A program made the position numbers and the translations under genes. This document shows positions 3,363 through 63,917 of a stretch of DNA of 64,000 nucleotides, one piece after another. Source of the stretch: Phoronis australis (taxonomy: Eukaryota > Animalia > Phoronida); contig NMRA01000270.1 in NCBI GenBank assembly GCA_002633005.1, positions 490,969 to 554,968 on the forward strand. Direction: 5' to 3'. The stretch's first letter is position 1. Each line of letters opens with the position of its first letter. Below the pieces are notes generated by a model, which did no database searches, was not told where the DNA came from, and worked only from the letters and a program-made list of their open reading frames with translations.

Positions 3363-3476
3363 CTAGTCCTTCACTAGCCGGTAGATGTGATGCTGGGCTC
3401 CATGTTCACTCGTCGACACTTCAAACACATAGGCGACGCACAACAGTGTCTCTTGCGTTTCCCTGTTACTCACCAC
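3363..3476 (-). CDS. TEAD: TEAD/scalloped, last coding exon ([37 protein letters not shown])
   Basis: Matches the canonical TEAD C-terminus ([12 protein letters not shown]). Acceptor tcag at 3477-3478, 114 nt, ends in TAG. Confidence 0.97.
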
Positions 3477-4315: not shown

Positions 4316-4468
4316 CTGAAGTATAGTGAAGTTCTCCAGTACGCTGTTCATCATGTATTTTTCGGGCAGATGCTTCAGCTTGTGAATAAAGTTGATCATA
4401 TATTCGCACATGGGCGAGCGGTGGATTCGGTAGACCCAGTGGCCGTTCTCAAAGCGTGAGAACTCAGT
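4316..4468 (-). CDS. TEAD: TEAD exon ([51 protein letters not shown])
   Basis: YAP-binding domain including the conserved palmitoylated Cys (SPMCEY). AG/GT boundaries, 153 nt, phase 0-0. Confidence 0.97.
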
Positions 4469-5089: not shown

Positions 5090-5171
5090 CTCCACTTTTT
5101 CAACCACTTGTTTTCCAAAGGAGCACACTTTTGTTGAGCATTGTATCGTCACATTTTCCGAACTTTCATAG
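5090..5171 (-). CDS. TEAD: TEAD exon ([27 protein letters not shown])
   Basis: Conserved [16 protein letters not shown] motif. ttcag|...|gtactg, 82 nt, phase 2-0. Confidence 0.96.
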
Positions 5172-6782: not shown

Positions 6783-6841
6783 AGACTGGTCACACCATAA
6801 AACGTTCCACTTTCATCTTGCACATTTGTGTTTAGATCAGC
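6783..6841 (-). CDS. TEAD: TEAD exon (ADLNTNVQDESGTFYGVTS)
   Basis: Conserved (W)ADLN...FYGV motif. ttcag|...|gtaagt, 59 nt, phase 0-2. Confidence 0.95.
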
Positions 6842-7529: not shown

Positions 7530-7637
7530 CCAGAACTTGACCAGGAAGAACGCCGACTGCGGACCTTTGTCATACAACTCTTTCAAGCCGCCTTTCTTTT
7601 CAGGAAATTTATCATAAATCTGTCTCACGTCAACGGC
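7530..7637 (-). CDS. TEAD: TEAD exon ([36 protein letters not shown])
   Basis: Highly conserved TEAD motif [14 protein letters not shown]...AFFLVKFW. 108 nt, AG/GTGAGT. Confidence 0.97.
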
Positions 7638-7800: not shown

Positions 7801-7863
7801 CTCTAGGAGAGGGTCAGCATATGTGGGGGGTGTTCCAATATGAACAAATAAATGCTTGTTGTA
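7801..7863 (-). CDS. TEAD: TEAD exon (YNKHLFVHIGTPPTYADPLLE)
   Basis: Conserved YNKHLFVHIG motif. 63 nt, tttcag|...|gtacgt. Confidence 0.96.
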
Positions 7864-8318: not shown

Positions 8319-8478
8319 CGACTCTGGGTCCCGCTGCTGCTCAAGAAAGGCTGAAAATTCGACTAGACGTAGTTTGGGACCAGCGATCGACCTGCCCTGC
8401 CAGGCTGGTGCTGACAGCTCTCCCTGGGGGTTCGGTGGCTTGGTGTCCACACCATAGGTGGGGTAAGGTGGTTTCACA
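8319..8478 (-). CDS. TEAD: TEAD exon (VKPPYPTYG...WQGRSIAGPKLRLVEFSAFLEQQRDPES)
   Basis: Start of the YAP-binding domain (WQGRSI..KLRLVEFSAFLEQQRD). 160 nt, phase 2-0. Confidence 0.95.
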
Positions 8479-9211: not shown

Positions 9212-9240
9212 TCTCCTTGAGGTATCGCATGGGGCCAAAA
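9212..9240 (-). CDS. TEAD: TEAD 29-nt mini-exon (FWPHAIPQG-D)
   Basis: tttttttttag|TTTTGGCCC...GGAGA|gtaagt. It supplies the phase 0-to-2 shift needed between flanking exons and the FWP...DVKP motif known from TEAD1. Confidence 0.9.
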
Positions 9241-9596: not shown

Positions 9597-9770
9597 CGGT
9601 GGTGCCCCGGTGTAGGGTCCACCTGGCCTGACCCCGCCCGGTATGCCGGGGGGACCAAAGCCAGGCAGTGCAGCGCCCAGCGTCTTGTTGTGTATTGCAC
9701 TGGCTGAGACTATCTGGGCAGACGACATTGCGGCCATGCTTTGGAGGGCCTTGTCTTTAGACGCCTGATC
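9597..9770 (-). CDS. TEAD: TEAD exon (DQASKDKALQSMAAMSSAQIVSASA...GPYTGAPP)
   Basis: Conserved DQ..KDKALQ.MA.MSSAQIVSA followed by a Pro/Gly-rich region. 174 nt, phase 0-0. Confidence 0.96.
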
Positions 9771-10924
9771 CTGGTAAGACGAGAAAGTCTTGAGGTTATG
9801 AAAGAGAAGAGACAACGGCTTTACAGAAAGAGTGCGAGGCAGGGAGCTGAGTGATGCACAGAGACACAGCACGGCAGTCAATCACCCTCTCTCACCAACT
9901 GCAAGGCCATTCTTCCTAACGTTTCTACTCAAGAATGCAATTCATCTCTATTGGCGAAGCTAGGATCTCGCAACGATGAATGACCCAACCATGAGAATAA
10001 GCATTTGCAATAACCTTAAAGAGGCAGAGCACCACTTTTGTCATGGGGAAAAAGGAGTCCCGCCCCCCTTCCCCAAACCTGATTACTCTCCCCTTTTTAT
10101 GCATCGCAATTCTTTTCTTGCAAATATGTTTCTTTGCTCATGACCTAATTTTTCTGATTCGTGAAAAAAGAAATAAATTTGTACTAAAAGGATTATTCTG
10201 CAAGACAAAAAATGCACCATTGTGTTCATGAGAAAAGAACGTTGTTAATGAGAATGGCTACGCAGTTCAGAGGGAATATGAATGAGCCATCTAACACTAA
10301 TGCTCTTTAAAAGAAAAGACTTACAGAAAAATGACATAACTTTGGATGCCTTGGCAAATAAAAGAACAAAAAAATGACTTACAAGTTTAAATAACTGGTG
10401 ACTATTTTTTTTGGCAATACCTGGTCAGTTGAGAAACCCTAGTTTCATTTTCGAAACAGAAAAATGACATCACAGTTGCACACCTCCAATGATTGTGTTG
10501 AGACTTCATGTTATTTCCTCAAGAGAATTAAATTGTAGCTTGAATGTGTCTTGTGTTATTCTCATGGAATCATAATCTCAAAGTCTCAGTACCCATTGGA
10601 CAGCTCTGATCTATGGTGATGAGTCTACTTGTTTATAGCCCTGTTTACATAGTCTACAGACACACATACACTATAGTTACCTCAAGGGTTCATTAATCAA
10701 TGGCTTTTTAAAAATTGTTTTAAGAAAACAAATATGGTGTCCAGTTACTTAACAATACATTTTAAGTCTTGACATTTGCCAAATTATCCTACCACCCATT
10801 GTTCCAACATTTTCTTTTAGGAGACAATGTATTCCTATGTGAGTCGTGAATGGTATATACAGTCCCTGCTGAAGTGCAAGGGGGGAGAGCACCGTGTAAT
10901 CTGTGACTGGTGACTAATCAGGAT

Positions 10925-11075
10925 CAGGGGCAGATCCAAGAATTGGTGTTAAGGGCAGGGCAGAGTACTAGCCAGGATTTTGCATGTCAAACATTCGCAC
11001 CCCCGAACTACCAAAAGGAATCTGGGAGAATTTTGGGTGGGGCATGGCCCCCTTGCTCCCCTAAATCCATCACTG
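10925..11075. mobile_element. Decayed short hAT-like MITE
   Basis: Ends caggggcagatcca and taaatccatcactg are degenerate inverted repeats around a G/C-run-rich core. No TSD visible. Confidence 0.45.
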
Positions 11076-12833
11076 AGTATTAACCCACATCTTCACGTTT
11101 TAGCAAAAAACTGCATGAAAAGTAAGAAGACATACTACTATAGACAAAACAAGAGATTTACCATAATGTAACTACTAATTAACTCATGACTGTAAGCCAA
11201 GCCAAACAAATGCTCTTTTCAATTTCAGACAGCCAGTTGTGTCAACTTACTGCTCAAAGTTCATAGTGTGAATGATGAATGCCAAGTTAAATAGATGACT
11301 TATGATGTTTACAAACATGTAGTACACAAGGGTTACATTCTTAGAGCTTTTCTACAGTTTTTAATACCTCTCTTTTGTCACCAGGCTCAAAAATGTCAAA
11401 AGAGATCATGAACAGTGCATAAAGCATTTGATGAACTTTTTGTTTTACGGAACTGTTACACGAATAGCTGACCAACTTGGAACTGTTACAAGAATAGCTG
11501 ACCAACCGAGAAGGGTGAGATCAGGATACAGGAAGGAGGGAGGCAAACGGGTGAAGGAAGTGGTGGTGTAGTGTGGTACTGCCGGTCGATACCCAGACCT
11601 GGCGCTGTCATATCGACTTTGGACAGACTCTGACAAACTAAGCAATTTTAAGCAATTTTTGCAACACAACCTGGACACATTTCTGAGTACAGAAGGATTA
11701 CAAGAGAATACAAGTGTAGAGATTCTTCGATTAACAAAGCAATATGGCGGAAAGTCAAGAAGTTTTTCAAAAAATACAGGAAGTTTTTGTTTGCACTTTG
11801 CAACCAGCAGCGAAGACCATTTAGTCATTTGAGCAATTACGTTTGACCAAAACTAAAGTCTTGGTCATAACTCACAACTCACACACACACAATTCTTGCA
11901 AAGCGGGGACTGGGTATGAAGCATAGCCAGGATAATAGATTAGGTTAGGGAAAAACCGTCTAAAAACACCGAAAGACGAAACACAATACAATACAATAAA
12001 ATACAATGCAATAGAGGAGGTAAACTTAACACAGTGGTAATGCAATAGGCGAGAGAAGCGGTGTACTCTCACTAGCGAGAGATTTCTGTCCAAGCCTGGT
12101 GTACAGAGCACTAGCTCATGTGAATTGGACATGATCAGAAAAAGGAGATACATTCATGAAGCAATCTTGACTAGCCACATGGTAACAGGGATTTCCAACG
12201 CCACTTGGTGCTGTTCAAAGGCATTCTATTTCACAGCATGAGACATGGAGACACTATTTCACACAACTGATCAGCTGCTAAATGTCAATCTAAGTAGCGT
12301 TATAGACCAATCAGAGTGTGGAATATGGTCACGTGACGTAAAGAAACGTCTACCACATGCGCCTCTGACAGCTTCCTTGGCCATTTTTGAGTACAAGCAG
12401 TGCAAGTGTGGGTTCCATGGAAAATGGTGAAACGGTGTCAAAGGGGCTTGTATCAATCTAACAGTTGATATTGTGATCTATTAACTGGGGGAGTAGAGTT
12501 TATTTCATTTCCAAAACCTACAAAAGTCAAGGAATATTAAGGAAAAGTGCTTCTGATGGATTTAAGCATGCTGGAGGCTACATGACCAGTGTTGAACGTG
12601 AATACTGTTGCTAGGAAACTACCACTAGTATGCTTGCACAACGTAAATAAGCTCTTTACCAAAGATGAGAAATCTTGATCAAAATGTCGCCGATCTATCT
12701 ATTGTACGTAGAATAGCATGGGAATGTAGGCAACACTCCAGGCATACACCCTGCCCAGTGACTAGGTAATGACACTACTTGCACCATTCGTTATTTGGGA
12801 ATTTCACCTTTCACCTTTCTGTTGAAACTATTC

Positions 12834-12961
12834 AAAATTAAAAACCGGACGATCTCCGCAAAAATAAAAAAGTTCATGTTCAATTCAACGTTTCGTCTTT
12901 TCATTATTGAATTGAACATGAACTTTTTTATTTGTGAGGCGATTGTCCGGTTTTTGATCTT
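12834..12961. repeat. Long imperfect palindrome (about 55-bp arms)
   Basis: aaaaccggacgatctccgcaaaaataaaaaagttcatgttcaattcaa is followed after a short spacer by ttgaattgaacatgaacttttttatttgtgaggcgattgtccggtttt. Confidence 0.9.
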
Positions 12962-13559
12962 ATTGTGGCCAAACACTGATTTAGTTAACTATTCAAAAAG
13001 CTCAAAGAGTCAAAACCACTTTGGGAAAAGTTCAAGTTAAAAGAATTATTAAAGAGTTTTCTATAGAAAACAACAATTTTTATTATAAATTAGTTTTGAG
13101 TGCACGTGGTGCAACTTTTCACAAAAATCTTACACTTTTGTCCCCAACCTTTGTCCCGTGACTAAAGTAAGTTCTTACCTCTCTGGCTTCGAAACACCAA
13201 ATTTTTACTCAAAACGGCTTTGACACAGAAATATAAAAGTTTAACAGAATTGACAAAATTCGCTGGTGTGCCTGTCGTCGTCCTTGAATTTGCAACGACG
13301 GCATACAGAGCAGAACATACATCCAAAATCACCTGGCATTTCCCTCAGACCCACTTGATTACGAGCACCCATTGACTGTTTGTCTAAGGCTGTGTCACGT
13401 GATTGAGTGGGTAGAAGGATAGTCAAATTAGCGACTTCCTATGGTGAATAAAGACATGCTCCCTCATCAGTAAGGCAGAACAGACATCATTGGTTCGATG
13501 CCGTCATTGTTTCTCAGAGTCTCCTTGGCAGGGCCTCTACATGACCAGCAGACACTCAC

Positions 13560-13687
13560 CTTAAACTGATTCTGAATCTCTTTACACTTGCGCCTGGACA
13601 GGACCTGGATGTGGCTGGACACCTGCTTGCGCGAGCGAGTTTTGCCCGTGCGCAGCTGAATGTAGCGCGCAATCAGCTCGTTACGAC
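13560..13687 (-). CDS. TEAD: TEAD TEA-domain exon, copy B ([43 protein letters not shown]), putative mutually exclusive exon
   Basis: gtttcag|GT...AAG|gtgagt, 128 nt, phase 1-0, encodes TEA helices 2-3. Confidence 0.9.
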
Positions 13688-13730
13688 CTGAAACAGTTAC
13701 AACAGCGAGGTTTACAACACGCAAACTAAC

Positions 13731-13858
13731 CTTGAACTGATTTTGTATATCTTTGCATTTCCGTCTGGACAGCACCTGCATGTGACTGGAGACCTGTTTG
13801 CGTGTCCTCGTTTTACCCGTCCGTAGTTTGATGTAGCGTGCTATAAGCTCATTGCGTC
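13731..13858 (-). CDS. TEAD: TEAD TEA-domain exon, copy A ([43 protein letters not shown]), putative mutually exclusive exon
   Basis: attacag|GA...AAG|gttagt, 128 nt, same phase as copy B. Confidence 0.9.
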
Positions 13859-15270
13859 CTGTAATTATGCAAAATGACAGTATGGACAAAGTGTTGCGGG
13901 CCACAGCCACACAACAAGTGACCTGAAAAACAGCCATAAGTAAATCAAACGCTCGCTAAAAGCACACCAAGCTCTGCAAAAGTGCACCATTAAACAAACG
14001 CGGGTGGGATTGCCCGGGATGACATTAAACAAATATGCATCGATCCCGAGCGTGGTATCAGTCATACGCAGCGAGGGGGAGGACCATATGACCAGCTATG
14101 CCCGAGGGAACCATTTACGTCAGTTTTATTACAAAGACCCTGATGCTCCTTCCCGTACATTTCTGTGTCTATTGATAGATCAAGATATGCAGCCATTGTC
14201 TGCTAGCTTTATTATCATGGACAGGGCTTTATGGTGTCTGAAGCCTGTAATTGGTCAGATCACGAATAGCGATATCTGATGGGAGGCATGAATGAAAAGT
14301 GATATTCCACAGCCAGCCATACAACATCTTTTAATGAAAGTTACAGTAATACACATCAGCCAATCAGAATACAGAAAAAATAGTGGACATGTAATATTAG
14401 ATGCAGTAATTTCTAGTGGTTGAGGGAATCTGACAAAAAAATATTCCAGAAAAAGGACATTCCCAAACATTTTTGTGAGCCCCACCAAAAATAAATGATC
14501 TTAATTCAGTGGTGACACCACAGATAACTTCTGTAAGTGTAATCTGAACTTCTTGTGTTTGAGTGGTGTGATTTATCTTTCATATTAATGACTTCCTAAT
14601 CTAAGTCTTTTTATTCAATGCTCTTAGGCAGGCTTTCAATCTTTCAATTTTCTATGAAGGTTGCTTTTCCATACTCGCAACACTGAAAGATCATGTTACA
14701 TTGGAACGATGTTTTCAATTCTGAAGTGTTATTTGCAGTCATATTGTTTACATGTTGTCAAATTATCTGTGATATCAACAATCCAACAATGCATCTGGAA
14801 AACGACAGCAGCGCTGTAGATGAAAAACCCAGAACTGCCAAGTCAAAGGTCCAACAATAATGTTCCAAACAGTCTCATAACTGCAAACACTTGCCAAGTT
14901 TTGGCATTCAAACTAAGAGTCAAGATATCTTTTAACTCATCAAATGTGTATTAGTTAATTTTGTTTGTTTTTTTTCACCTTCATGAGGTACCTCAACTTT
15001 GACTAGTCACTACTGAGTTTGACAAGGTGTTGCACACTTTCTCAGGATATCAGCATACATCTCCACGTAGACCATGTGACTGATTTCACTCCCGCACACT
15101 AGCTTCTAGTGAATGTGACTTTTCTCAACCAACAAGGATTTGTAATGACCACGACGAATATACCGCAAGAGGTAGGCAATGTAGCAGTCCAGCACTACAG
15201 GTTGCAGAAGCGCCCCCAGTTGCCAATTCACTGAACTGAGCACAGAGGTGCCCTCTGTTGATTGACTCAC

Positions 15271-15451
15271 CGTACATCTTGCCCTCATCAGATAAGATGA
15301 TCTTCCTGCGACCACACGGTGGGTATATGGCCAACGCCTCCTGGAAGCTCTGTTCAATGTCGGGACTCCAGACCCCCTCTGCATCATTACCCAGCTCATC
15401 ACCATTGTCTGTTGACTTATCCTCCTGTTCAGGGTTCCAAGGGGCTGACAT
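15271..15451 (-). CDS. TEAD: TEAD first coding exon ([11 protein letters not shown]...[40 protein letters not shown]). The whole exon spans 15271-15501.
   Basis: Invariant TEA N-terminus. Donor gtgagt at 15269-15270, acceptor gcacag at 15502-15503. ATG at 15451, in-frame TTG at 15472, upstream in-frame TGA. Confidence 0.95.
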
Positions 15452-17504
15452 GATGCTTGCTTCGATAGCCAAGCCAAAGAGTGTGTGTCAAGGGAGCAAA
15501 CCTGTGCAAGAAATAGAACTGTTAAATGTGGATAGTAAAAATTCGTTTAAAAACAGACCGTATTGTACTCCGATTCTCCGCAATAAGCCAAGATTTTGTT
15601 TTGACGATAATGGTGAAAATTATGAATCTAAATCAATGTATTTGACAAGGAGAGAATGGCTCACTTTCTAAGAGTTTGAAAAACAGTTCGAAGAGCTTTG
15701 AAACTCACATGATAAATTTGTTAAGCTCATGACGAAGACATTTGGCATCACTTCCATGAAGAGAGAATTCATTGATTTCCACTGTGTTGAGTATGAATTT
15801 TCTGATGTGGAGAACAGTTTATGAAAGCCACACGCATATTTTAAGCAAATTATAAGCTTAGATAGGCTAGCAGCAGTGCAGCACACAAACTGTAATGGTT
15901 TCCCCAGAAAAATACTGAATAGTGACTAGTCCACAACAGCTAATTGACATGCATATTAAGCCTGTTACATTTGATAGTTACGTCCTATTTAACCATTTTG
16001 ACACTTTTGCTAATCTTCAAAACAAAAGTTTAATTAAGTAAATTGAACTAAATGTCAACTTCACACTTATTAAAAATGGTTGATAAAGAATACTTTCCCA
16101 GAGTATAAGTACCATTACAAAACATAAGATCTCCCAACTGAGACACCAGGAACTATTTCTGCTCTGATCACTTAGGTATAGGTTTGCAAAAGAGATAAAG
16201 ATAAATAGCATCATATTACAGTAAGTATAGATCAAACAACACATTAACAAACAAGCATTACATAATAGCTCAGTAAAACCTCGAGCACATTTTGTGGTGC
16301 AGTTCAGTTAAGGGCTTTTCCCCCACCCCAATCCAGTACTAGCAAAATTGTTGAGGTTAACTGCCAAGGTAATTTGATCATTCACATTGGCACCAGCAGT
16401 TAACAGATATTGAAGTTATCACTAGGTGGCGCTATCGTCATCAAAGTTATCACAAGGTGGCGTAGTATGATCTTCAACACTGCCCCTGCCGATAACTTTG
16501 ATGGATACCAAAGTTGAGCATTTCCACTCTAGCGATGCGTCGATGCTTCCCAACTAAATCCACCAGTTTTCACCAAACAAAATTTGAGTGAACTTCGATC
16601 TAAAAGGCCTTTCCCACTGCCTGTGTTGCCGAAGCTTCGGTCAATGGGTACACTAACGGCTTTCTTGAATCAAAGTTAGCAAACAGCGCAAGTTAACTCC
16701 GAAGTAAAAAGGTGGATTTGACAACAAAACGTGAGAAAACTCAACTTCGATTACATCGGAGTTATCAGAAGGGGTCGCTGCCTGCGTTTGACAACAGCGG
16801 GCGGTGACCTTCAGACTACTGCTGATGGTGCAGGTAGAAATAACCCCAAAGGACTAAGACTGAGTGGTAGACATTTATTAGTACTATAAAATTTAGCTCT
16901 TCTGTGAATTACACAACTACAAGGCCTTTCATACTTAACCTCAACACAAGGATCTTTGTGAGTGTGATTCAGTTCCGGATCAAGGTTAAGAACGCAAATT
17001 AACTTTGCAATAGGTGGATTTAACAGTGGAGAGTGGATTCTTTGATGCAGTAAGGTTAACTTAAGGGACTACCAGCAGGTGTCACTGTCAATATCAGCAA
17101 GGGTTGTGGAATCATATGTTTTTTGTTTCAAATATTCATCATTCTGCTAACATTTCATTTCACTTATAAAGTATACAATAACAAATCTAAAATAATAATA
17201 ACGCCTGAACAACATTGTCATTTTGCAATCACTTCACTGACCCAGGCATTTAACTGCAATAACTTCAGTGTTGGTTAACTACCCTCACAGTTAATATGAA
17301 CGGTCCTCTAGCACGAGACCACAAGTTGGTACGAAAGGACTGAACAAAAGTTGGGCAAGACACACAGAAGTTTGAACAAGTACGAAACTAAGATGTGTTC
17401 AATAAACAACGCCATATCTAACTGTCACAGGTCTAGTTTATTGTAAAATGTAACATGATACAATTCCAATAGCTCCCAGGGCTTGGAATGACCAATGACA
17501 AAAA

Positions 17505-41921: not shown

Positions 41922-43275
41922 CCAACAACATCTTGATAGTTTGCCTTAAAGGAAGTTTACCTCACGTCATTGCTTCCTGCACACGCGGAAGGAAAGTGCT
42001 CACTGATCTGTAAATTACGTTCATAGTACACACCATCAATTTTGTACTCACAGATGCAGTGAGCCAGCTAGAGAAATTTGTTTTTGTCAGGTGATGCAAT
42101 TATCAATTTTGATTGGCCGCTGAAGGTAATTGGATCACTCATATACTGTGAGGATTTATGTTTGCCTCGACAACTTTTTAAAAAATCTTTTTTGTTTGGA
42201 TCGTTAGATTCTCGGTCTAAGGCTTGCAATTGTGGTTGTAAAATTTAATTCTGTGGTTCGGTTAAAAAATGAAGTTTGTAATCTCACTGCCACTTGCTTT
42301 TACTTAATTTGTGTTCTCTGACGTGTTTTTTTTTGATCTTTAGATGTATGAGATATTGATGTAAACATGCTTGCATTGTGGGGGGGGGGGGAATTGATGA
42401 AAGTTACCCAAATCTTTGGAAATTGATAAGTTCGATGTAACTAGAAATTAATGTATGGCTGTGTGTTGTTCATGCTCATTGTAAGGGTAACGATGATACA
42501 TTTACAAGGTGTTGGAATGAGCCGTTTAGAAGTGACAGTGCTTGACCTACAGCACAGAACAGACATGAGGATGGCTATTTTCTNCCAACAACATCTTGAT
42601 AGTTTGCCTTAAAGGAAGTTTACCTCACGTCATTGCTTCCTGCACACGCGGAAGGAAAGTGCTCACTGATCTGTAAATTACGTTCATAGTACACACCGTC
42701 AATTTTGTACTCACAGATGCAGTGAGCCAGCTAGAGAAATTTGTTTTTGTCAGGTGATGCAATTATCAATTTTGATTGGCCGCTGAAGGTAATTGGATCA
42801 CTCATATACTTTGAGGATTTATGTTTGCCATGTAAAAGAAACGGAAAGTGAGACATTTGCCTCGACAACTTTTTAAAAAATCTTTTTTGTTTGGATCGTT
42901 AGATTCTCGGTCTAAGGCTTGCAATTGTGGTTGTAAAATTTAATTCTGTGGTTCGGTTAAAAAATGAAGTTTGTAATCTCACTGCCACTTGCTTTTACTT
43001 AATTTCATGTTCTCTGACGTGTTGGTTTATGATCTTTAGATGTACGAGACATTGATGTAACTATGTTTGCATTGCGGTGGGGAAAAATTGATGAAAGTTA
43101 CCCAAATCTTTGGAAATTGATAAGTTTGATGTAACTAGAAATTAATGTATGGTTGTGTGTTGTTCATGCTCATTGTAAGGGTAACGATGATACATTTACA
43201 AGGTGTTGGAATGAGCCGTTTAGAAGTGACAGTGCTTGACCTACAGCACAGAACAGGCATGAGGATGGCTATTTT
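41922..43275. repeat. About 660-bp direct duplication across a single-N contig join (probable haplotype overlap artefact)
   Basis: 41922-42583 is repeated at 42585-43275 with scattered SNPs and one 32-nt indel. The n at 42584 is exactly at the junction. Confidence 0.9.
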
Positions 43276-43814
43276 CAATACATTGTTGAGAAGTTGCATC
43301 TATTTTCAAAATGCTATGAAGAAGTTGGCAAAATGTCAGCTCTGAGCATTAGCTGACAGCTCAGTTGGAGTGTGTAATTACTGTTTGGTGCTTCCTGGCC
43401 GGTGATGTGTCTGTTACCTTCAGAATGAGAAAGATGACCGGGCAAACGTTCAAAACTAGTTCAGAAGGAGAGAAGTTTAAATGTTCCTATGCTACTTACT
43501 TTGTTTTTAAAGATAATAAAATAAAACCTCCGGGATGAACATCACCCGTGGATAACATAGGGCTATGTTAATGAGAGTGGTTATGGCTTCAGTGTTCTGC
43601 TGGTCTTGTTTATGTTTACAAGTGTTATGTGGTATGTGAATATGCAAATAAGCTTCTGTTTACAATCTTCTAAAACCTGATTTATGTGGAGGTTAGTGAC
43701 TCCTAATTAAAGGTATGGATAATATCAAACAGGATGTGACATGGAAGTCTTTAAGTTTGTGTCCAGTCTTATGCAGAGAGTAGATACCTGATACCTCCAT
43801 GGCTCATATGTGGT

Positions 43815-59238: not shown

Positions 59239-59921
59239 GTAAGCGTTCACTGTTTTGACAAAATGGTTGAAAGTAACACTTATATAGAAAAATTCTAAAG
59301 TCACACATCTCTATAGCAATTGTGACAGGAAAGCAATATGTCAAAATATCAAAAGCTGTAGGCTACGATCCTTTATGCCCCCCGGACTGATCTGTTTTTA
59401 AAGTTAGTGAGGTTTGGCTAAGCATGATCTTATCGGCGGTAATCAACTTGAGCCTAATTTACAAACTCTTTAAACCGTGAATTTAGAGAAAATAACCTTC
59501 ATAATGTATTTCAGTCAGAAAAATTAACACAGTTTGGTCTTGGGTTTTAAAAATCGGTGAAGTTTTTACTGAAACCACACAGCATCTGAAAGAATTGACT
59601 TGGGGATTGCTGGTTTCATTTCCACTTCGTTAGTAAACTATCTGCATACAATAGACAGGCCCCTTCAATAGGCAATGTAAACATGTTTGGTTTTTCATAA
59701 GGCCTTGGGGATAATGGGCTGTATCTGTAGTCAATCTTGTAATGAGCATCCACATGCTTGATGCTTTGACGATATGGCATAAAATAAGCCCCTGCGCACA
59801 CCCTGTTTCAACGATATGGGTTGAAGTAAACACCCGCATGCGCGCCAGTTTGACGATACGGTGTGGTCTTTTCATTTTATTGCCTGCTACGATGGTGATA
59901 GATTATGGTGCTCTTTTACAG

Positions 59922-59991
59922 GCAACAAGACCTGTTCCACGTGTTGGCAGCCTACTCTATGTATAACACAGAGGTGGGCTACTGTCAAGGC
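59922..59991 (+). CDS. USP6NL: USP6NL exon, apparently interrupted ([23 protein letters not shown]...)
   Basis: TBC glutamine-finger motif YxQ (GYCQG). Homology stops right after it and no GT donor follows. Confidence 0.9.
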
Positions 59992-60431
59992 AAAGCCAGC
60001 AACCCGACAAATGGCGGCTCAGCACTGTGGGGGAGAGGCGCTCCAGAAAGTGGCAGGTCCGGCGAGGTGGAAGCTGTCTCGTCTTCAGAATCGGAGGGAG
60101 CGAAGTGCGCATAGTCCTCCATGGGGACGGGTTGCGGCCAGTAATGGTAACCGCCCATGTGTGGGGGTGGTGGCGCGTAGAAGGGTGGCCAAGACGGCAT
60201 CAGCGTCGGGGGATTGAAGAAACTCCGGTCCGTAGTGGGTTCCGGAGTCTGGGCGGCGGTGGCTGAAGCGGCGGTGGTTCACGGTTCGCTCGGCGGCGGC
60301 TGATGGTCAGGCGACGAAGCCCGCGTCAGAGAATCGATGGACGGCAGGTTAACTGAACTTGAAGATGTCTTCTTCGGGGGCTTCTCGATCGAAGTTGAAC
60401 CAGATTTTCTATCGGCGGAGTCCTTCGGCAT
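59990..60431 (-). pseudogene. Decayed, 3'-truncated Pro/Ser-rich ORF of about 147 codons (MPKDSADRKSG...PSEP*TTAASA...LMPSWPPFYAPPPPHMGG...), possibly retroelement ORF1
   Basis: ATG at 60431 is in frame with ORF 59985-60200, with one internal TGA. GC/CpG content is far above the flanks. The ORF runs directly into the USP6NL exon. Confidence 0.5.
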
Positions 60432-60565: not shown

Positions 60566-61790
60566 AACCCGCGCTGCATAATGTGTGAATGACAGACGCG
60601 TTCCCAGGGATTAGAGCGGGCAGGGAGTGCAACTCGAAAAACCTGGGTGTAACCGGAAAGCGATGGCAACCGACGAACAAAAGAGTGTCAGGATCGCTGG
60701 CGTCGACAGTGCCGAGCACAAAGAGGGCACATTCGGTGCAAAGGTCAAAGGCGTGTACAAAGTGGTAAACAATGTACAGCTGTGCGTGGGTATGACGTAA
60801 CATGTCAGTACAGTGAGGCACACAAAGAAATACTTGACTGATGAGTCATGCGTGCATCATGTGCTGTGCCAAAGGCCCAAATGTGAGTGTTAAATACGCA
60901 AAGAGTTAAGCGTACGAGGATAGAACAACTATCAAACACNGCTCAGCGCCGGTAAAACCGGGCAAGGTGTGGCCCGTCGAGTCACACAGAGTCGGTGAGC
61001 TCGGTCGGCCAAAACTGCCAAGATGATGATATAGTTGATAAGAAGAAAATGCTCATTAGCAAAGAGTTATGCAATTGAGCGTGGTCGCGGTGTTAACTTG
61101 CGCGAAAAAAAACCTTCCAAAGGAAAAACACGTCTTCCTCTAGAAGATAAGTCCGTGTGAATGGTCCGCTTTGCGCATGTCCGTATCTCATGGTAGTACT
61201 CGGGGGAATTCTGGGAGGAATAAAATTATTGATCCGATCCGAAATCAATATTTTCATTGATACAATATTTTAAAGTTCCAAGCATCCCTAATTAAGTCTA
61301 GATGAAGTTGCAAACTTGAACCTCTAATAATAAATCTAGTTAGCGTTGGTGAATCATGCTCTGAAGCAATCAACGAACTCCATGAAGTTAACTGCCCTTG
61401 AAAAGTGAGAATAGGGCAATTTTGTTAGCTACTTTTCTCCGAAATTAGTGAGGTTTTACTGTACGCACGTTCCAATGGCCTCAACATTAATTGTGTGCGC
61501 ATGTTAGGCCAACAAAAGCAGAGTTGGTTCTGATCTGTTTTTTATTTATTGAAAATCGAGTCTGTGGCGTGGTTATTTTTTTCAAAAAAGAAAATCCATA
61601 TCGTATTTCAAACCTTGCCATTTCGAAAAACCTCAAACTAGCTAAAATTGATGCGGGCGGGTTTTTTCTAGTCGGCGATGGCAGGTCTCAAAAAGAGTCG
61701 AGGTAGAGACCAGGACCAACTATGCTTCTTTGGCCTTGATGCTTCAAAAATTGTTTCTACCATCGCTGCCATTTGTATTGAACAACTCAC

Positions 61791-61959
61791 CACAGCTGTG
61801 AGAGCAGTTGTATCCAGGAAGTGTTTCTGATAGTGGCTTAGCAACGCCGGCATGTTGGAGAAATACTGTTCGCCTATCCGGTACTTTGTCACTCCACCGC
61901 TGTTGATTTTGTTGATTATGTAGTGACTGACTAAAGTGCTGTGATCCTCACGGTCCTCT
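61791..61959 (-). CDS. Crk-like SH2-domain gene, SH2 C-terminal exon (R-EDREDHSTLVSHYIINKINSGGVTKYRIGEQYFSNMPALLSHYQKHFLDTTALTAV)
   Basis: VSHYIIN...RIG.Q.F...P.LL..Y..H.LDTT is Crk-family SH2. tttcag|...|gtgagt, 169 nt, phase 2-0. Confidence 0.88.
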
Positions 61960-63623
61960 CTGAAATGAGGGTGAAAACGGGCACCATGAGCAGACATACA
62001 GCTCAGTGGCAGTGTTTGCAGGGGAGACCAAAGTACTTGGAAACTTAGGAAAGCAGCATTCATCAATTCACATACAAATAATTAAATTTCATCCTGTTGT
62101 GAGGATAATTAGTTTGTCTCGTTGCATTTATGAGCTGAAAAGAACTGTTAACGGACTAAATGCATTTATTCATCAATCATGCTTGAAAATGACAAGTATC
62201 AACCTCTGCAAAAAGAAAGCTGAAAACTTATGAAAGACAATTAATCAAAACACAGCGATTCTCGACTTTGATTTTGTTATCACAGAACAGCTATGGATAT
62301 CATATTGTACTTGTCTGTCAAAGGAAATGTAATAGTACTTAGTTCCAGACCTTCATTAATTCACGTTTGATTGAACACAACTTTGTAGTTGAATCGTCCA
62401 CAGGAAAAGTATTAGAACAACCCCAATGTTAGCAAATTTATCAGTTTAATGAAAAATCCTGACAAAGGTTTCGTCATTTTTATTCGTTAAGATTTTCGCA
62501 AGGGATCATATCAATGTATAAAGAAATGTTTGTCAATGTACCTATGTAGTATTACTATTTTGTTAGACAACATTCCAAGGGTCTATGGCCTTGAAAACTT
62601 AGGGATTTCGAATTTAATTAACACATTTCAGTAACTTTTAATTACCAAAAATCAAGACTATAATACATCAATAAATTCAACACATTCTAGCCACAAATTT
62701 ATCACCAGTTGTTTTACAGCAGATGTGTTCAAGTAGCTGTTCAGTATTTCTGAAACTGGCGCTTGCCTTTGTCCTTTTTTCAAAAACAATCACGATGGCA
62801 AGAAAACTTCCCATTATTTAAAAGACTAACGCGATAAAAAAGAGTGTAATTGTAAGTTTGTTACAACGCATTTTTGTGTTTTCGAAAACAGAAAACTAGT
62901 AGGTCTCTACACTGAAAATACTCATGCATGAGATTAATTCCGAAATTTGCATTACATCTTCCACCTGCCTTCTTGTTAACACACTTTGCCAGTACCAGTC
63001 GCTTTGAACAGATCAAATCAATTAATATTTTATTAAAAAACTGGCTAGTTCAATTATGAAAGGGTTGTAGGTAAAGCAACATGTGTGACGTACTACTCCG
63101 CTAGTGTTCTTGTTTCATTTCACTCTTGGCATGATACATGTGTACAGACTTCCACGGAAGGTCTTGACTTATGATTAATAAAGATATGTGAAAGTAGTTG
63201 GTTTGCTTGTAGAACAAGCTCACATTTGAAAACAATAACAGTCTATAGGAGTATTCATGATAAACAATAACATCCTTAACCAATCTGTCAAAATGATAGG
63301 ATTTGCATGTCACTTGCAACAGAAAATGCTCACTAGAGTAAAATTTCATCAAATTAGGACACAGCACGACCGACAAGTTAAATTTTGATTTTAATTATCA
63401 CTTTTGCTAAAAAGATGTACCACAGCCTATAAGTGCTTTACCATGTTCCAGTTCTGTACCACAGCTATAATCACACTGAAAATGTCGCCATTCCCAACCA
63501 TGACAGAAGCCCTTGTCGAATGAAAAAGTGAGTAATTTTAGCAATACTTTTTTAACAAAATTGTCAAAACATTGTTTTCCCAGTGGACAGACATAATCAC
63601 CAAGTCTATTAGTATAACAAGGA

Positions 63624-63917
<294 letters not shown>

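Follow-up and report, generated by a model that had tools for sequence, protein, structure and literature searches.

Does one TEAD gene make two versions of its DNA-binding domain by choosing between two copies of a single exon? Within Hippo signalling, TEAD is the component that binds DNA, and its TEA domain has stayed almost unchanged across animals. The stretch of DNA analyzed here (64,000 nt; hereafter, the window) carries on its minus strand a single TEAD gene, in which the exon encoding TEA helices 2 and 3 is the sole exon found twice (tblastn with 12 homologs). Whether both copies are used, whether they exclude each other, and what the four residues that separate them may do to DNA binding are addressed in turn below.

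A TEAD gene with two copies of the helix 2-3 exon

The gene was assigned to TEAD/scalloped by its N-terminal TEA domain (PF01285 above the cut-off for exon 2 and for both helix 2-3 copies, A and B), by PDB matches of its protein to TEF-1/TEF-3, and by a C-terminal YAP-binding domain in the same frame as the TEA domain (tblastn exons, 416-residue predicted model). The first coding exon found (exon 2; 15271-15501, minus strand; ATG at 15451, AG before 15501, Pfam TEA match) encodes TEA helix 1 and the L1 loop and ends in phase 1. The common exon downstream of the copies (9597-9788, minus), with two acceptors at 9770 and 9788, was placed by tblastn and by the read joints 9769-13559 and 9788-13560. 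Eight further coding exons on the same strand (9212-9240, 8319-8478, 7801-7863, 7530-7637, 6783-6841, 5090-5171, 4316-4468, and 3363-3476), predicted from tblastn and AG/GT ends, encode the linker and the YAP-binding domain. The 11-coding-exon model yields 416 residues with either A or B and is 83% identical to its nearest homolog.

Exons A (13731-13858) and B (13560-13687), both minus strand and 128 nt long, are adjacent, have the same phase, and carry splice sites of their own (AG acceptors; donors GTTAGT in A and GTGAGT in B; the A acceptor is pyrimidine-poor). Both begin within the Gly codon that precedes R77 (GGA/GGT) and encode helix 2, the loop, and helix 3, and each peptide matches Pfam TEA at profile positions 37-66 of 68. 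The copies differ at 30 of 128 nucleotides and at 26 of 42 whole codons, 22 of them synonymous and four nonsynonymous: K86, T94, M102, and D112 in A (TEAD4 numbering) become Q86, S94, I102, and E112 in B. The initial annotation had described two 128-nt exons at these coordinates with identical phase, AG/GT sites, a 43-nt spacer, four residue differences, and about 23 synonymous codon differences, and the sequence agrees on every count, the split Gly codon being the 23rd. A tblastn search of the 64-kb window returned no third copy, and no inverted repeat of the docking/selector type stood out around A and B.

The spacer between the copies (13688-13730, minus; 43 nt, GT...AG) is likely too short for splicing. 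The other introns of this gene are at least 163 nt long. Splicing A to B was computed to bring a stop after 107 codons and skipping both copies a stop after 64, and transcripts of either kind would likely undergo nonsense-mediated decay. In the accessible text of PMC5740500, mutual exclusion is attributed to steric block at donor-to-branch distances below 50 nt and to frameshift with nonsense-mediated decay; the pair resembles those systems in its donor-to-branch distance below 50 nt and in an exon length not divisible by three, these thresholds being human ones that may not be those of this lineage. Short spacer and frameshift had been put forward earlier as two safeguards of exclusion. The frameshift upon joining was confirmed, but a third outcome had been overlooked: A, unspliced spacer, and B form a 299-nt segment, in frame and with no stop (473 residues, computed), so that a transcript retaining the spacer would get past both safeguards. 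Such an open spacer frame is not beyond chance, as 47% of 20,000 shuffled spacers were also stop-free.

Several features elsewhere in the window were recorded alongside the TEAD gene. An SH2-domain exon (Pfam SH2, E 1.7e-11) lies within 61671-63917 (minus) and likely continues at 61671-62081; it looks Crk-like. A short RabGAP-TBC match (E 2.6e-6; 59902-60111, plus) appears to stand alone on the opposite strand and is about the size of an exon. At 41922-43276, two tandem copies of 660 to 690 nt, 92% identical, meet at a single N (42584), possibly a haplotype duplication in the assembly. Short intronic repeats at 10219-10253, 10953-11057, and 12854-12984 attract large numbers of reads from other parts of the transcriptome and are dispersed repeat fragments.

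Both copies are spliced to the upstream exon

RNA evidence came from three raw-read runs of one study (X4, X5, and X6; about 19% of each read), from a contig set of a second study (X1), and, for a related organism (organism C), from contigs of a third. A narrow region over the exons gave 17, 7, and 14 reads in X4, X5, and X6, 38 in all; counts below follow this order. As set out in the accessible text of PMC5740500, a validated pair shows the upstream exon spliced to the second copy, the first copy spliced to the exon downstream, and either no reads joining the copies or a frameshift. Exon 2 was joined to A by 2, 5, and 2 reads (nine in three runs) and to B, bridging A, by 8, 0, and 3 reads (11 in two runs) and by an X1 contig; X1 contigs join the upstream exon to B only. 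B was joined to the downstream exon at 9770 by 4, 0, and 1 reads and at 9788 by 0, 0, and 3. The initial annotation had pointed to the competing junctions 15271 to 13858 and 15271 to 13687, and to 13560 to 9770, all of which occur in the reads; its proviso that only one copy might ever enter transcripts is not the case, A and B both being spliced to exon 2. A joint from A to the downstream exon (9770/9788), bridging B, was not listed in four runs at a threshold of three reads per run. In X4 and X6, coverage of A stops at its donor, and two X6 reads on A continue, by subtraction, beyond the narrow region, with six leftover bases that fit a splice to 9770, a match of arithmetic and not a displayed junction.

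No A-B joint was listed among the 38 reads of the three raw-read runs, and depth was 0 at 13703-13717, within the spacer, in all three; with 18.7 as the summed depth of the flanks, only joint or retained forms above about 15% are excluded. In each of X4 and X6, reads matched both copies at 95 to 100% identity and showed a splice junction for each, and the first mate lay on the plus strand for all exon reads, which fits minus-strand RNA in a usual stranded library. X5 had zero depth on B, and the A:B junction counts of 2:8, 5:0, and 2:3 gave a chi-square p of 0.013 in a post hoc test of the three runs. A and B constitute a genuine, expressed pair of exons that is most likely mutually exclusive, and the choice between them may be regulated by tissue or state.

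Unspliced reads ran from A into the upstream intron (13859-13942, minus) in three of three runs, at depths of 2, 2, and 1; together with the pyrimidine-poor acceptor, they suggest slow splicing or retention at A. Use of the acceptor at 9788, 18 nt upstream of 9770 (three reads, X6), adds six residues right after helix 3. Short optional inserts of a similar kind occur at this place in clams and other molluscs, and it is the site of the vertebrate TEAD1 exon-6 microexon in the accessible text of PMC9410899.

The duplication is old and points to an origin within this lineage

Divergence between A and B is concentrated at synonymous sites (pS 0.85, pN 0.05; Fisher p 5e-17): codons for the same residue differ in 22 of 38 cases, where 23.1 would be expected at full saturation given the codon use of the gene. 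Synonymous saturation alongside 5% nonsynonymous divergence upholds the earlier proposal of an old duplication with purifying selection on both copies. In the contigs of organism C, both copies are spliced to the upstream exon; A differs from the window at 5 positions in 111 nt and B at 8 in 129 nt, and the 5 of these 13 differences that are listed are all synonymous. Set beside the divergence between A and B, these small differences indicate that the duplication is several times older than the split from organism C.

A and B are identical at 38 of 42 residues, while either copy matches any of 110 distinct segments at 37 at most. They also have S106, C110, and N115 in common, and C110 occurs in 0 of 505 fetched proteins. 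This mutual closeness and the shared Cys point to a duplication within this lineage, from which protein searches and a profile-free HMMER search found no protein. In a single-gene tree of 35 proteins (quick search without bootstrap; SH-aLRT values), the gene falls outside the deuterostome (99; 13 rows), Imparidentia (96), gastropod (98), and cephalopod (100) clades; its nearest rows by path are molluscan, with no supported sister. This placement indicates a protostome gene, likely a spiralian one.

Four residue changes leave the reported DNA contacts intact

Residue numbers of A and B were mapped by counting from the R64/K65/I66/L68 motif. The contacts in the TEAD4-DNA structure are R64/K65/I66/L68 and R95/K96/S100/Q103, as given in the accessible text of 10.1101/2022.08.01.502314, which cites the structure. 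The L1 loop lies in the constitutive exon and is common to both forms, and R95/K96/S100/Q103 are identical in both copies, which are set apart by K86Q, T94S, M/I102, and D/E112. In the AlphaFold2 model of homolog P0400 (helix 2, 74-86; helix 3, 92-119; pLDDT above 90 over 71-110), position 86 falls within helix 2, 94 comes immediately ahead of helix 3, and 102 and 112 both lie inside helix 3; from helix geometry, residue 102 would face the core. Among the 110 distinct segments, position 94 is T in 91 and S in 19 and nothing else, D112 is found in 13, and a residue other than Ile occupies 102 in 14; Q86 is found in 0 of 505 fetched TEAD proteins.

Identity at R95/K96/S100/Q103 makes a switch of specificity unlikely and tuning more likely. 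A change in DNA recognition, as implied by the initial annotation, is not borne out: the copies do not differ at the reported contacts, and three of the four swaps are present in other TEADs. Judged by sequence, both predicted proteins likely bind the same MCAT motif, and a real effect on binding is possible, as Q86 has no counterpart among the fetched TEADs and T94 and I102 flank contact residues.

TEAD exon pairs in other animals

Duplication of a TEAD recognition-helix exon has precedents. A tandem duplicated exon substitution in human TEAD3 is event 210 in the supplement of PMC8373072 and is also marked in Lam et al. and in Kondrashov and Koonin; the accessible part of that supplement describes 21-residue helix-3 exons dated to Vertebrata, and the pair has no mention in the main text of PMC8373072. 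Like A and B, the TEAD3 exons are tandem, homologous, and alternative over helix 3, with a toggle at position 102 (I/L in TEAD3, M/I here). They are 63 nt long, encode helix 3 and a C-terminal tail, preserve the frame, and lie 189 nt apart, whereas the protostome pair described here spans helix 2, loop, and helix 3 in 128 nt, is locked by frameshift, and lies 43 nt apart. Database models with helix-3 pairs include bat TEAD1, shark and fish TEAD3, lamprey, amphioxus, sea urchin, sea cucumber, acorn worm, and sea star. They resemble A and B in offering two alternative helix-3 segments, in separate isoforms or joined, and shark TEAD3 and sea star have the I/M102 toggle; unlike A and B, they share helix 2, differ mostly at 107-117, and stay in frame when both segments are included. 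A and B thus do not match the deuterostome type, a 63-nt exon starting at V98 with a constitutive helix 2. The hemichordate, echinoderm, and amphioxus pairs (P0014/P0235, P0186/P0187, P0062, and P0162) suggest that the human TEAD3 event is deuterostome-wide.

Clams offer a parallel in the segment itself. In Mercenaria mercenaria and Mya arenaria (a venerid and a myid), the RefSeq isoforms X1/X2 swap the whole helix 2-3 segment from the same residue as A and B, with the same T94/S94 toggle; the S copy comes first in the Mya model and the T copy first in the window, and the clam pairs were seen here as protein models. Record P0001, a read-through ORF, has three tandem helix 2-3 copies (S94; T94 with L102; S94), the first of which resembles P0213, grouped with an annelid in the tree. 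A and B differ by 4 residues, A differs from the clam T copies by 8 or 9, B from the clam S copies by 6 or 7, and both differ from the P0001 copies by 7 to 11. As 42-residue peptides, the copies group by lineage and not by T/S class, and A and B do not pair one to one with the clam copies as orthologs would. The clam and P0001 duplications apparently arose independently of the window pair. A toggle between copies at position 102 is seen in TEAD3 of human, fish, and shark, in sea star and P0001, and in the window pair; it is absent from TEAD1 and from lamprey, amphioxus, sea urchin, sea cucumber, acorn worm, and the clams.

Among the listed cluster members, compared over their first 33 residues, no alternative helix 2-3 segment was found in Haliotis (11 members), Mytilus (14 of 15 listed, cluster of 32), Octopus (5 of 6), unionids (3), Lineus (4), Patella (6 of 7), Biomphalaria (4), or Dreissena (4), and copies could be concealed by gaps in annotation. 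The doubled segments of P0003 and P0004 are long identical repeats and were set aside as model artifacts, and the distant P0038, P0049, P0052, and P0054 were left out of the comparison. The exon homologous to 9597-9770, single in the window, is doubled in P0121 (Lamellibrachia), the P0137 cluster (Patella), and P0144 (Nucella), which suggests a second duplicated TEAD exon in some spiralians.

Discussion

The most probable reading is a single TEAD/scalloped gene whose helix 2-3 exon was anciently duplicated, with one copy used per transcript and the same motif bound, in tuned fashion, by both forms. RNA splices either copy to the upstream exon, and each transcript would likely carry one. The products would be two predicted 416-residue proteins, four residues apart; both likely recognize one and the same MCAT motif, and what is tuned between them would be affinity, stability, or the choice of partners. 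Splicing of A to B would be blocked sterically by the 43-nt spacer, and the duplication would have arisen in this lineage, as an event separate from those behind the clam pair and the helix-3 pair of deuterostomes.

Several other explanations were weighed against this one. The proteins might be interchangeable, with both exons kept for recognition by the spliceosome in different cells (subfunctionalized splicing) and the four changes due to neutral drift at tolerant positions. We consider this unlikely, even though merely four residues differ after synonymous saturation, deuterostome pairs differ more (4 to 9 residues within 21 aa), and the counts of S94, D112, and non-Ile102 given above are compatible with it. 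Against drift speak the five listed organism C differences, all synonymous (eight others unlisted), and the same T/S and I/M-L toggles, which recur between the copies of other lineages; positions 94 and 102 are both tolerant, so this recurrence may itself reflect relaxed constraint. That the two TEA domains read different motifs or spacings, and so drive different target sets, seems distinctly improbable. T94 adjoins R95, I102 adjoins Q103, and Q86 is unique among the fetched proteins; in addition, Jiang et al. reportedly described, in 2000, human TEF-1 isoforms with altered DNA binding, which are said to relate to the helix 2-3 region. Although exon pairs of such a kind often alter functional surfaces (accessible text of PMC7954323), the swaps seen here are conservative, and the four reported helix-3 contacts and the whole L1 loop are the same in both forms.

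Retention of the spacer, which would turn A, spacer, and B into one 299-nt exon and give a TEAD with two recognition helices, is very hard to reconcile with zero mid-spacer depth in every raw-read run. The read-through keeps the frame and meets no stop, both helix-3 exons are joined in frame in vertebrate database models, and a full-length mouse Tead1 containing both exon 4 and exon 5 has been cloned (accessible part of 10.64898/2026.04.17.719138); yet the open frame is not beyond chance, and we rejected this form for now. The assembly does contain N gaps, but an assembly or allelic artifact, or a dead relic in one of the copies, is scarcely credible. As the initial annotation had already argued, the duplication is genuine: the copies have their own junctions at 95 to 100% identity in X4 and X6, both are present in organism C, and their synonymous divergence is saturated.

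Returning to a tuned, mutually exclusive pair, its novelty needs to be stated narrowly. The initial annotation had presented such a splicing switch as perhaps undescribed; the kind is already known from the human TEAD3 catalogue entry and the clam RefSeq isoforms, whereas no paper on an invertebrate TEAD helix 2-3 exon pair, or on its convergence, was found in the full-text literature, with subscription papers mostly outside the search. TEAD was also not found in the supplements of PMC5740500 (10 files) or PMC9741552 (one small file, whose tables may be incomplete). What distinguishes the window pair from those of deuterostomes is that it is lineage-specific, lies in a protostome, duplicates the whole helix 2-3 exon, and is locked by frameshift; its origin is likely independent. 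Convergent exon duplication in orthologous genes is well described, according to the accessible text of PMC9741552.

It is the repeated convergence that makes the case interesting. The recognition-helix exon may have given rise to an either-or pair on at least four separate occasions (in deuterostomes, clams, the P0001 lineage, and the lineage of the window), with convergent toggles at T/S94 and I versus M/L102, and these might act as a selected dial on TEAD DNA affinity, overlooked in human TEAD1/TEAD3 too; we offer this as a tentative and rather doubtful extension. If the copies are interchangeable, the locus would be a tidy but ordinary exon duplication. That one exon has been duplicated again and again, apparently independently, suggests a benefit from having two slightly different DNA-binding domains. 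With either-or use and merely four residue changes, the pair offers a clean test case in which each change can be assayed singly, and such assays of A and B would tell what the little-studied helix-3 pair of human TEAD1/TEAD3 may do.
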